DNA of 64,000 nt from Candidatus Bathyarchaeota archaeon. GTDB lineage: Archaea; Thermoproteota; Bathyarchaeia; 40CM-2-53-6. The notes under the pieces were generated by a model. The model saw nothing but the letters and a program-made list of their open reading frames with translations, was not told the DNA's origin and ran no database searches. Position numbers and translations under genes: made by a program. The stretch is taken from positions 64,001 to 128,000 of the forward strand of contig CAVPLU010000003.1 of assembly GCA_963706285.1 (NCBI GenBank). The letters run 5' to 3'. Shown here piece by piece: positions 7,156-38,443 of this stretch (positions are counted from its first letter, which is position 1; every line of letters starts with the position of its first letter).

Positions 7156-7527
7156 AAGCCGCGTGTAAGCAAGTCGCTGGCTTAAATTTTTGCAGTTTCT
7201 ATGCCCGTGAAAGTTGTGAGATCGACTTTCATCGCACTGCTTGGGGCGTGTGTTCTCAATAGTGTGGAGTCTAGAGCGGAGTCTCTCTCTTGGTGCGTTG
7301 CGCCGAATCATAATGACGCCGGAACAAATATTGGAGAATGGGAATGCCTATTGTGAACAATTCCACTGCTGTAGGACTCAAGAAGGAAATGAAGATCGAC
7401 CTCAAGAACACAGCAGGAGGCGTCACATTCCTGAGTAAAAGGAGTCTCACGAAAGCGGGCTGCAGACTTCGGTCTACCAGGTGATGCAAGGTCGCAAGTC
7501 TTAACTGGAGAGGCTTCATTCTGAAGT

Positions 7528-7592
7528 AGTGCGCGTGAGTGGGGCCTCCCACCCGTTGCGCTCAACAAACCCCGGAGTAGGGAGGAGAACGA
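7528..7592 (+). promoter_or_regulatory. Structured 5' leader of queT, riboswitch candidate
   Basis: TATA-like AAGTCTTAAC at ~7496-7505; stem 7528-7562; A-rich CAACAAAC; anti-SD CCTCCC (7545-50) complementary to GGGAGG (7580-85). Confidence 0.5.
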
Positions 7593-8133
7593 ATGAGAAA
7601 GAAAGAATACATTCTCCATGACTTTGGCGGCAGTTTTCGCCGCTCTATATGCCGTCGGCGTCGTTGTCCTTGGACCTGTCAGCTTCCAAGTGTTTCAGGT
7701 GAGAGTCGCGGACGCACTGCTTCCGCTGTGTATACTGTTTGGGTGGCCTGTGATTCTTGGTTTAACACTTGGTACGATTGTGGCAAACCTCTTTGGTGGT
7801 CTGGGACCAATCGACATCGTTGGAGGTAGCCTCGCGAACTTGATTGCGGGCTACGTTGCATGGAGAATCTCCCTGGATAGGGGGAAACCCTGGCTTCTCC
7901 TTGGTGTTGTATCGCAAGTAATGATCGTCACTGCAATTGTTGGAACTTACCTCAGCTACCTATTCGGGATGCCTGTTGAAGTCGGGTTGCTTGGCGTACT
8001 CCTAGGAAGTATAGTCGCTATTGGAATCCTCGGGTCTCTGCTCTTGCTGGCACTGTCATCGAAACGGGTATCTGCTGCATTCAGATCACGCGGAATCATC
8101 TTTGCACAAGTTCACCGAAGCACTAGTCATTGA
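7593..8133 (+). CDS. queT: QueT-family (DUF988/COG4708) queuosine-precursor transporter, ECF S component; probable frameshift near the start
   Basis: AALYAV...PVSFQVFQVRVADAL...GLTLGTIVANLFGGLGPIDIVGGSLANL; ATG 7593 follows a strong SD and is one base out of frame with ORF 7618. Confidence 0.85.
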
Positions 8134-8170: not shown

Positions 8171-8896
8171 TCACGAGTCCTGAGAGATGGGCCAGCTGAG
8201 TATTCTACTCTTCTCAAGCCCAATGAGGACAGGGACACCGACAACGATGGCAACTATAACGGCGTAAGCTGCTTCGAGAGGGGTCTGGATAGCACCTAAC
8301 ACGAATATTGAGGGAAGCGCCTCTATCGGGATCGGGTATGCCTGATAGAGGCCCCCAACTATGAGCATAAACACTCTGACCAAAGCATCCAACTCCACGG
8401 CCACGAAAGCAACCAGGGCAACAGCAGGAACTAGACGATGCGGACTCAGCTTGGTGGCTTGGAGTCTGTGCACAAGGAAAGCCGCGGCGAAGACGCCTGC
8501 GAACCCGATGTATGTGTCCCAAAGTGTCCACAAGGGAATATGCATCGTCAGCGGATGCGCGAGAAATGCCGCGAGCAACACTGCATAGATTCCGGCAGTG
8601 AGATACCATCTCCGTGTTATCAAGAAACCCGCCCCCAGTGCTCCTACAGCTTCAGCGATCCCGAATAGGTTCTCGATCCAGAAGCCATCAGGCCTCATGA
8701 AACGACCCCCGATCCAACCGATCGCTGCTGCAAGGAACCCAAGATAAGGACCCGCAATGATGCCTTCCAATGGCTCCATGACGATGCTCATTCTTCGAAA
8801 CCCGACAAGCGGAGGCGCGTACGAGAGGACAATATGAAGAGCTGCCAACGCTGCAACCACAGATACATACAGGCTTCCTCGTCCTCTCAGAGTCAT
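8171..8896 (-). CDS. ECF-transporter S-component-like membrane protein
   Basis: VAALAAL...EPLEGIIAGPYLGFLAAAIG motif, about 7 TM. Confidence 0.7.
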   Translation of the reverse strand: MTLRGRGSLYVSVVAALAALHIVLSYAPPLVGFRRMSIVMEPLEGIIAGPYLGFLAAAIGWIGGRFMRPDGFWIENLFGIAEAVGALGAGFLITRRWYLTAGIYAVLLAAFLAHPLTMHIPLWTLWDTYIGFAGVFAAAFLVHRLQATKLSPHRLVPAVALVAFVAVELDALVRVFMLIVGGLYQAYPIPIEALPSIFVLGAIQTPLEAAYAVIVAIVVGVPVLIGLEKSRILSWPISQDS

Positions 8897-36864: not shown

Positions 36865-37236
36865 TTGACAGGTGATTTCGTGTTCAGAATAAGAGTCGAG
36901 GATGACTTCGACGCTTCGCATATCATTCCAGGGCATCCGGGCAAATGCAAGAACCTTCATGGTCATACATACCGAGTCGAAGTGTTCGTGAAAGGTGACA
37001 AGTTAGACAAGAATGACATCCTAGAAGGCGCAGACTTCACCATATTGAAAAAGAACCTAGCTGATCTCATAACAAAGTACGACCACAAGCATTTGAACGA
37101 CATAATCGATGGAAACCCAACTGCCGAGAACATCGCTTTGACTATCTTCCGTGAACTACGGGCGCTAGCGACAGAGGGGTTAGAGAAGGTCCGCGTATGG
37201 GAATCTCCAAGGAGCTATGCTGAGTATTGGGAATGA
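36865..37236 (+). CDS. queD: 6-carboxy-tetrahydropterin synthase
   Basis: FDASH..PGHPGKCKNLHGHTY, DHKHLN, NPTAEN, VWES. Confidence 0.92.
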   Translation: MTGDFVFRIRVEDDFDASHIIPGHPGKCKNLHGHTYRVEVFVKGDKLDKNDILEGADFTILKKNLADLITKYDHKHLNDIIDGNPTAENIALTIFRELRALATEGLEKVRVWESPRSYAEYWE

Positions 37237-37805: not shown

Positions 37806-38443
37806 CCAAAGACGGTGCTATCGTCCTACTGTCGGGCGGATTGGATTCCGCGGCAGCTCTTTGGTGGGCGAAGAAAAGATGGAATACCTATGCTTTGACA
37901 TTCAGGTATGGACAACTGAACTCAAACGAAGTGAAATCAGCGACGAGGCTCGCGGAAAAAGCAGAGGTCGCTCATCATTTCGTGGTTGATGTAGGCTTCC
38001 TTAAGCAAGTATCGGAATTGAGAAAACGGTTGGCAGGTCAAGGGCTCGACCTGAGACGGTTTCCCCCAACATACGTGCCTAGTCGAAACACGGTCTACTT
38101 GGGCATAGCTGCACACTACGCGGAGGTCTATGATCTAGGACACATAGTTACGGGTCACCTTGGGCGTGATCCGTTTCCCGATTCCAAGCCGTCATACATT
38201 AGGGCAATGAACGACGCGCTCACTCAAGGTAGTTGGCTTCGAAAGAAACATAGCATCAGAATCACGACACCCTTCGCACGATCAACTAAAGAAGAAGTTG
38301 TCAGGCTTGCCCTCAAGCTTGATGTGCCTTTGAACTTGACGTGGAGCTGCCACAGGAATCGGAAGAGACCCTGTGGGAAATGTCAGGGCTGTCTAGACAG
38401 ATCAAGAGCTCTCAGTATGTCTGAATTAGCTGCTATGCGATGA
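37802..38443 (+). CDS. queC: 7-cyano-7-deazaguanine synthase
   Basis: LLSGGLDS, YGQ, TYVPSRN, TWSC...PCGKCQGC..R. Confidence 0.92.
   Translation: MTKDGAIVLLSGGLDSAAALWWAKKRWNTYALTFRYGQLNSNEVKSATRLAEKAEVAHHFVVDVGFLKQVSELRKRLAGQGLDLRRFPPTYVPSRNTVYLGIAAHYAEVYDLGHIVTGHLGRDPFPDSKPSYIRAMNDALTQGSWLRKKHSIRITTPFARSTKEEVVRLALKLDVPLNLTWSCHRNRKRPCGKCQGCLDRSRALSMSELAAMR

Follow-up and report, generated by a model that had tools for sequence, protein, structure and literature searches.

The Locus

The stretch of DNA analysed here (the window) comprises 64,000 nucleotides of a Candidatus Bathyarchaeota archaeon genome (contig CAVPLU010000003.1). Positions 7529-7587 of its forward strand hold one copy of a 59-base conserved RNA element, which lies in front of a gene for a predicted queuosine-precursor transporter, QueT. 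The QueT open reading frame (ORF) at 7618-8133 matches Pfam PF06177 with an E value of 6e-27, its residues 1-147 falling on profile positions 1-140 of 141. An earlier note, made from the sequence alone, had proposed a riboswitch in this leader. The sequence elements it named are all present at the positions it gave, including the stem 7528-7562, the linker CAACAAAC, CCTCCC at 7545-7550, and CCCC at 7570-7573 (the beginning of CCCCGG, 7570-7575). QueC (window 37817-38416), QueD (window 36889-37233), and TGT (on another contig) are encoded in the same genome; therefore, the transporter would serve salvage.

Conservation and Distribution

The degenerate pattern of the motif core matches the window once, where 0.01 matches are expected. 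The QueT protein was searched against 41 related genomes and the regions upstream of its matches were compared; a block of about 59 nt proved to be nearly identical across several families. A MAFFT alignment of 99 distinct copies contains 27 invariant columns and has the consensus nGGCGGGTGAGTGGGGCCTCCCACCCGTTCCGCCATAnAAACCCCGGAGTAGGGAGGTn, and in alignment A2 the AAA and CCC of the linker and tail, in the region of loop L3 described below, do not vary. A covariance model named R1 was built from relatives with stem P1 as its sole structure. In the 2.13-Mb genome to which the window belongs, its single match is this site (79 bits, E 1.7e-17).

R1 matches were obtained in 93 of the 151 sampled genomes of the class, in 72 of the 94 of good quality, and in 54 of 79 genera, mostly as one copy per genome. 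The phylum-wide sample gave matches in 30 of 151, and those outside the class include families f40 (9/15), f52 (3/3), and f56 (2/2). Two weak matches in family f43 and one within the class (genome G099) have no QueT alongside and are probably false. When one genome per prokaryote species was scanned with the pattern, at least 119 stretches were returned; among the matches listed, nearly all of the titles shown name Bathyarchaeia or Bathyarchaeota, Methanomethylicia-type archaea, or “Nitrososphaerota” metagenome-assembled genomes (MAGs). More than 170 distinct motif sequences are now available across Bathyarchaeia and Methanomethylicia-type genomes, and one locus (L033) belongs to the complete genome of “Candidatus Bathyarchaeum tardum”. 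The view of the earlier note that the leader is conserved, structured, and linked to queT is thus borne out by the upstream regions of orthologues, by R1, and by the pattern scan. On this comparative evidence the leader is a real and widespread structured RNA.

Stem P1 and the Hairpin State

Stem P1 joins 7529 and 7531-7534 to 7558-7561 and 7563 and is constant in both of the folds considered here. Among 175 distinct sequences its innermost pair is formed without exception (0 unpaired), 139 times as G-C and 36 times as C-G, and its outer pair takes five standard forms (G-C 111, A-U 25, U-A 14, G-U 10, and C-G 3, among 173-175 unique sequences). On alignment A5, which was made with the model from 97 distinct, deliberately diverse sequences, 98.6% of the P1 cells are paired.

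In the first fold, state H, the 23 nt inside P1 form a long hairpin. In the numbering of the motif, where G6 is window 7535 and U28 is window 7557, they pair from the outside in as G6-U27, U7-G26, and G8-C25; after an A9 x C24 mismatch the upper part continues with G10-C23, U11-A22, G12-C21, G13-C20, and possibly G14-C19, up to a 4-nt loop, and U28 is bulged. The Shine-Dalgarno (SD) sequence is left free. The outermost of these pairs (7535/7556) is G-U in 161 of 173 sequences. U11-A22 (U7540:A7551) is exchanged for C-G and for G-C, and in some lineages both bases are deleted together. Where UAGG stands for UGAG, the A x C mismatch is shifted by one level and is not lost. The hairpin is paired in 96.7% of the cells of alignment A5 and has a covariation score of 0.190 against 0.094 +/- 0.006 for shuffled alignments (0/500 reach 0.190) and at most 0.065 for slid partners, the score being favoured by the fact that A5 was fitted to this hairpin.

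The Pseudoknot State and Mutual Exclusion

In the second fold, state K, the strand CCUCCCACCCG at 7545-7555 pairs with 7573-7585. The result is an 11-bp helix, S2, with A7576 and A7579 bulged and the whole SD sequence buried. S2 crosses P1, and therefore the fold is an H-type pseudoknot, of which P1 is stem S1, GUGAGUGGGG loop L1, UU loop L2, and the A-rich linker with AAA-Y-CC loop L3. State K reaches a covariation score of 0.169 against 0.083 +/- 0.005 in shuffled alignments (0/500), on an alignment (A5) that was not fitted to it; its 12 pairs are formed in 90.8% and 92.5% of cells.

The earlier note had pointed out that CCUCCC is complementary to the SD sequence. The pairing is borne out, with covariation, but the pseudoknot helix extends beyond it. 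A blind scan for mutual information placed C23 (7552) and G7577 (column 55) third, behind two P1 pairs, so that the SD:anti-SD pairing could be extended to the 11 bp of S2. This pair, at the second base after CCGG, is C-G in 60 cases, U-A in 9, and U-G in 2. Elsewhere the loop and tail change together, as in CUUCCA:UGGAAG, (C)ACCUCC:GGAGGU(G), CCCUCU:AGAGGG, CCACC:GGUGG, and GCCCCC:GGGGGC; in the variant UUCCGAC:GUCGGAA no SD-like sequence is left and the start codon follows directly. Native loops and tails pair with a mean score of 8.84, compared to 8.24 when tails are swapped among the sequences (the highest of 200 swaps gave 8.41).

States H and K exclude each other because both use strand 7545-7555. 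Rough nearest-neighbour energies for the two are alike: about -15 kcal/mol for H, or -20 with the tail hairpin, and for K -5.1 from P1 plus -15.3 to -18.3 kcal/mol from S2, before pseudoknot penalties. The idea of mutually exclusive folds, also present in the earlier note, has held up, with compensatory changes in both, and as judged from these changes the two exclusive folds are maintained by selection. Two general features of a riboswitch are found here, namely, a conserved and covarying 5′ leader tied to genes of one pathway and alternative folds that share strand 7545-7555.

Several other pairings were tried and rejected. The pseudoknot originally proposed between GGGG (7541-44) and CCCC (7570-73) is paired in 85.9% of cells, but its mismatches are uncompensated (unpaired in 26/71 sequences at one pair and in 43/81 at the next) and it shows no covariation; the real helix is S2. 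The tail hairpin CCC-CGGAGUA-GGG of the same note found little support, since it is paired in 88.2% of cells with 19 unpaired cells at the outer pair and no compensation. A hairpin in register 2 (GUGGG with CCCGU) is paired in 87.9% of cells and displays no real covariation. The short CCG:CGG helix alone is paired in 98.9% of cells but is invariant, and it is informative only within the long helix S2. An extension of the pseudoknot by N14:+2 is paired in 25% and is not supported. For the A-rich linker (7564-7572), no pairing partner was found by comparison of the alignments.

Putative Promoter and Predicted Transcription Start

When 100 unique upstream regions were aligned on P1, an A/T-rich signal appeared at -33 to -26. 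Its information content is 0.51-0.75 bits at -31 to -29, and both -30 and -29 are A or T in 93 of the 100. It is preceded by an A-rich stretch at -39 to -35. These two signals would fit an archaeal TATA box and B recognition element (BRE). Archaeal TATA boxes lie at a usual distance from the start of transcription; with this distance, and given that the AT-rich signal stands at a fixed distance from P1, a start 2-4 nt before P1, near 7526-7528, is plausible. The start near 7528 suggested by the earlier note falls in this range.

Reading Frame of QueT

The earlier note had placed the QueT start at ATG 7593. This codon does follow the SD sequence, but in the present assembly the distance of 25 nt from it to ATG 7618 puts the two codons in different frames; a TGA at 7594-96 closes the QueT frame upstream of 7618, and the ORF runs from 7618. 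In orthologues, an in-frame GTG, TTG, or ATG occurs at the same spacing from the SD sequence, eight codons ahead of the conserved TL.A..FAALYA. In one RNA-library contig of a close relative (a single contig, depth 2.6), base 7606 is missing, which brings ATG 7593 back into frame. The extra base falls in the run AGAAAGAAAGAA (7593-7620 region) and is either an assembly error in an A-rich run or a frameshift specific to the strain. The Pfam QueT domain is complete from either start codon.

Among 99 called ORFs of at least 100 aa, the start codon lies 3-13 nt past the SD sequence, and in 43 of them the spacing is 7 nt. Most of the 15 QueT loci that were found only by three-frame hmmsearch have CTG, ACG, ATA, or GTA at the expected start-codon site. 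At ten loci the QueT frame is open and one of these codons stands about 7 nt past the SD sequence; in these archaea they may act as near-cognate starts.

Genes behind the Motif

Among the 119 pattern matches listed, 109 have QueT downstream (94 by phmmer and 15 by three-frame hmmsearch), 8 precede genes of a second membrane-protein family (about 230 aa), and 2 are cut by a contig end. QueT also lies downstream of 72 of the 77 model matches that were fetched. For comparison, Pfam QueT is present in 112 of the 151 class genomes.

The second family was seen behind the motif at twelve loci in all. In four genomes (G010, G015, G017, and G024) it stands directly behind the motif, in the place of QueT, and Pfam QueT was not found in these genomes, so that it seems to replace QueT there. 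The family has no Pfam match at E <= 1 and no sequence match in the PDB. In a profile comparison with QueT, the hhalign probability is 10.5% and the similarity is confined to the first transmembrane helix. An AlphaFold2 model (predicted local distance difference test score, pLDDT, of 47) was too poor for a structure search. Its nearest protein-atlas clusters are labelled “ECF transporter S component” (energy-coupling factor) with a score of 0.93, which is a lead only.

Relation to Known Riboswitches

The preQ1-I riboswitch has a 34-nt aptamer with a second helix of 3-4 bp, while preQ1-II is about 80 nt long. To our knowledge, the natural archaeal riboswitches known so far all belong to classes shared with bacteria. 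That of Thermococcus kodakarensis, which senses fluoride, was described as the only archaeal riboswitch determined experimentally as of 2021 (PMC8241225). It is a natural archaeal switch, but it is ion-sensing and its class is shared with bacteria, whereas in the sampled genomes and the matches listed the present motif was found in archaea of a single phylum only.

In bacteria, queT is regularly controlled by riboswitches of the preQ1-I and preQ1-II classes, as far as the sections consulted of two articles go (PMC11625349, PMC5372724), and archaea use preQ0 for archaeosine, according to the part consulted of the second (PMC5372724). A 2024 review of preQ1 riboswitches recognizes three classes, limits class II to Bacillota, and in its main text contains the word “archaea” 0 times (PMC11625349). 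The Rfam 15 models of these classes (RF00522, RF01054, and RF02680) have no match in the window at the gathering score, and at E <= 10 they have none in 7300-7700 or in 20 diverse instances of the motif. The statement of the earlier note that the loop does not match the canonical consensus of preQ1-I, preQ1-II, or preQ1-III is therefore borne out, and the motif is not a member of these classes.

In the way it would work, the motif most resembles preQ1-II; in topology it comes closest to preQ1-I. PreQ1-II (RF01054, the “COG4708 motif”), as described in the review sections consulted, likewise lies in the queT 5′ untranslated region, acts on translation only, and has its full SD sequence paired in a pseudoknot with an anti-SD sequence in a hairpin loop; it differs in its HLout fold with helices P1-P4, in which the SD sequence belongs to P3 and a P4 hairpin is embedded, and in its restriction to Bacillota (PMC11625349). 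The archaeal motif has an H-type knot crossing P1, a single long S2, and a competing hairpin, and an embedded hairpin of the P4 kind is without support. PreQ1-I (RF00522), above all its type III with full occlusion of the SD sequence, shares the H-type fold, a roughly 5-bp P1, an A-rich L3, the SD sequence in the 3′ strand of the second helix, and the regulation of queT or yhhQ transporters, as far as the preQ1-I accounts consulted go. In contrast, the archaeal S2 has 11 bp and two bulges, L1 has 10 nt, L2 is UU, and an anti-sequestering hairpin is conserved. PreQ1-III (RF02680) is also associated with queT and has an SD:anti-SD helix, formed there by docking according to the account consulted; its aptamer lies apart from the ribosome-binding site, whereas in the archaeal motif the SD strand is within the main pseudoknot helix. 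Paper searches on archaeal, Bathyarchaeia, preQ0/preQ1, and queT riboswitches yielded no description of the motif, which is apparently undescribed so far.

Proposed Function and Alternative Readings

The element is very probably a cis-regulatory leader with two states. In state H, with 7545-7555 paired to 7535-7543 in the long hairpin with its one A x C mismatch, the SD sequence at 7580-85 would be free and QueT would be translated; in state K the same strand, paired to 7573-7585, would form with P1 the pseudoknot that hides it. The conservation, the two folds, and the gene association come from comparison of relatives. We infer further that the pseudoknot is the form bound by a ligand, with the junction of P1 and S2, among the invariant unpaired GUGAG, UU, and AAA-Y-CC, as the probable site. 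Its binding would tip the balance towards K, and uptake would be shut off when the precursor is plentiful. The ligand would be preQ0, or possibly preQ1, because bacterial queT is a preQ1 target, archaea use preQ0 for archaeosine, and the invariant unpaired bases look like a pocket. It is rather likely that the motif senses a 7-deazaguanine. With about the same confidence we favour the reading of 7529-7587 as the 5′ leader of queT mRNA and a predicted translational OFF riboswitch whose 7-deazaguanine ligand would most likely be the archaeosine precursor preQ0. As the motif is conserved among Bathyarchaeia and related archaea, has two exclusive folds, and fits none of the described riboswitch families, it is probably a new archaea-specific metabolite switch.

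A number of observations weigh against this reading. The copy in the window, folded on its own, does not stand out (z -1.28; 22 of 200 shuffles fold as well), and therefore the support is comparative. The sequences compared are close kin and nearly invariant, which means that few lineages contribute to the covariation and that the shuffle tests make it look stronger than it is; to this is added the fitting of A5 to state H. No resemblance to the preQ1 pockets described so far has emerged at the level of single nucleotides, and at L2, where preQ1-I reads its ligand by a cytidine, the archaeal motif has UU. The identity of the ligand is drawn from the name and association of the gene, and the substrate of archaeal QueT is itself a prediction. 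QueT occurs without the motif in some lineages, as in family f18 (QueT 7/7, motif 0/7) and, mostly alike, in f19. In the window's genome, the R1 scan gave a single copy and no queuosine or archaeosine biosynthesis gene (QueC, QueD, or TGT) led by the motif. Two RNA-library contigs reach upstream of the predicted transcription start; being unstranded contigs, these data say nothing on the start, the strand, or the expression level, and the two may represent DNA or may come from transcription of the neighbouring, divergent gene.

Some of these points would also suit a two-state riboswitch of the same build that reads another ligand, such as a different purine or deazapurine, queuine, or a substrate common to archaeal QueT and the ECF-S-like family. 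This is unlikely on present evidence, even if the choice of preQ0 or preQ1 depends on a Pfam name, the same motif is carried by a second and unrelated family of membrane proteins, no biosynthesis gene is motif-led in the window's genome, and no preQ1 model matches. Against it stand the role of bacterial queT as the classic preQ1-I and preQ1-II target in the portions consulted of the two articles (PMC11625349, PMC5372724) and the presence of QueC, QueD, and TGT, so that the genome makes and uses preQ0-type precursors. Equally improbable is a leader that responds to a protein, a small RNA, or temperature in place of a small molecule, or that damps translation constitutively through the SD:anti-SD helix. 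SD-sequestering helices can indeed serve as thermometers or as targets of proteins, the loop imitates the 16S rRNA 3′ end so that part of its complementarity follows from the SD sequence itself, and small-molecule binding is a proposal. However, some 25 unpaired positions vary little or not at all among several classes, which is typical of a binding pocket and unneeded in a thermometer; moreover, two competing folds are both kept by compensatory changes, and the motif is strictly tied to two transporter families.

Much less credible still is a diverged member of bacterial preQ1 class I or class II. The queT gene, the burial of the SD sequence in a pseudoknot helix, and the A-rich linker after P1 are held in common, and the H-type fold is that of class I. 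The 11-bp helix and 10-nt L1 are hard to reconcile with a class I aptamer of 34 nt, and at E <= 10 the models match neither the window nor the 20 diverse instances. For class II, the review sections consulted describe an HLout pseudoknot that has helices P1-P4 and comes from Bacillota only (PMC11625349).

The preferred reading, a preQ0-sensing translational switch, has a broader form, which we regard as evenly balanced between right and wrong. It holds that the motif would be the first riboswitch class restricted to archaea and, among 7-deazaguanine sensors, a fourth class of independent origin, reading preQ0 through an unusually long H-type pseudoknot with a built-in anti-sequestering hairpin, and that the second, ECF-S-like family would be a new importer of preQ0, taking the place of QueT in some genomes. 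If true, this well-populated, archaea-only class would mean that archaea evolved metabolite-sensing RNAs of their own. It would also provide a handle on archaeosine-precursor salvage in mostly uncultured lineages, a likely substrate for an unannotated transporter family, and, for archaeal genetics, a compact translation switch under ligand control.

Coordinates and Further Observations

Features of the queT leader and gene in the window
Feature	Position	Strand	Basis
BRE/TATA-like promoter element AAGTCTTAAC	7496-7505	+	sequence; upstream-region alignment
P1 5′ strand: G7529, then GCGC 7531-7534; U7530 faces U7562	7529-7534	+	pair counts
GUGAGUGGGG: inner-hairpin 5′ strand in state H, loop L1 in state K	7535-7544	+	outside-in pairing levels, hairpin counts
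Switching strand CCUCCCACCCG (anti-SD + ACCCG): partner 7535-7543 (state H) or 7573-7585 (state K)	7545-7555	+	
UU: loop L2 (both bases) in state K; U7556-G7535 wobble pair in state H	7556-7557	+	
P1 3′ strand	7558-7563	+	pair counts
A-rich linker and invariant AAA-Y-CC, pseudoknot loop L3	7564-7572	+	alignment
S2 3′ strand CGG-A-GU-A-GGGAGG; A7576 and A7579 bulged; SD GGGAGG at 7580-7585	7573-7585	+	
SD-proximal ATG, 7 nt past the SD, out of the QueT frame in the present assembly	7593-7595	+	
QueT ORF, 171 aa, as open in the present assembly	7618-8133	+	Pfam PF06177

A diverged variant of the motif occurs at seven loci (21-35 bits) with QueT downstream. Its lower stem is free of the A x C mismatch and its tail, AAACCCCAAAAGG.., is free of CGG; pairing between the loop and the SD sequence is retained (e.g., GCCCCC:GGGGGC). 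One genome carries three motif-led QueT genes, and the third copy, L217 (G145:C281:1714-2512), looks degenerate: it scores 36-38 bits and has many G-to-A changes, one broken P1 pair, and the SD-like AAGGUGG. Three contigs with titles that name bacteria (Methylomirabilota, “bacterium”, and Acidiferrales) nevertheless carry the archaeal motif and QueT; these copies match Bathyarchaeia relatives, which suggests mislabelled or mis-binned MAGs.

The window's genome also contains a second, partial QueT-like frame (L024, G000:C4:228817-231981, and L025), with 35 bits against Pfam over profile positions 7-54. Its leader differs from the motif and holds an inverted repeat, CCGAGGCC...GGCCUCGG. Two motif-less QueT genes, L261 (G043:C1:457820-458140) and L264 (G057:C3:86140-86460), have in common a different and longer conserved leader, GGCGGGU..UCCGCC.UUACC ... 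GGAUGAUGGG ... GGGAAAUC ... CCGCAGAA. It has no match in Rfam at E <= 0.1, and a scan with the exact pattern returned just these two loci and one chance match inside a bacterial coding region; it may be a second structured RNA. At three loci of family f19, where the motif is absent, QueT directly follows a tRNA gene that has either a long variable arm or an intron-like insert.

Next to QueT in the window and convergent with it, an ORF of 241 aa on the reverse strand (8171-8896) has no Pfam match and is weakly similar to the second membrane-protein family (E 0.004). Among its nearest atlas clusters are some in which ECF riboflavin-type S components make up a minor part.

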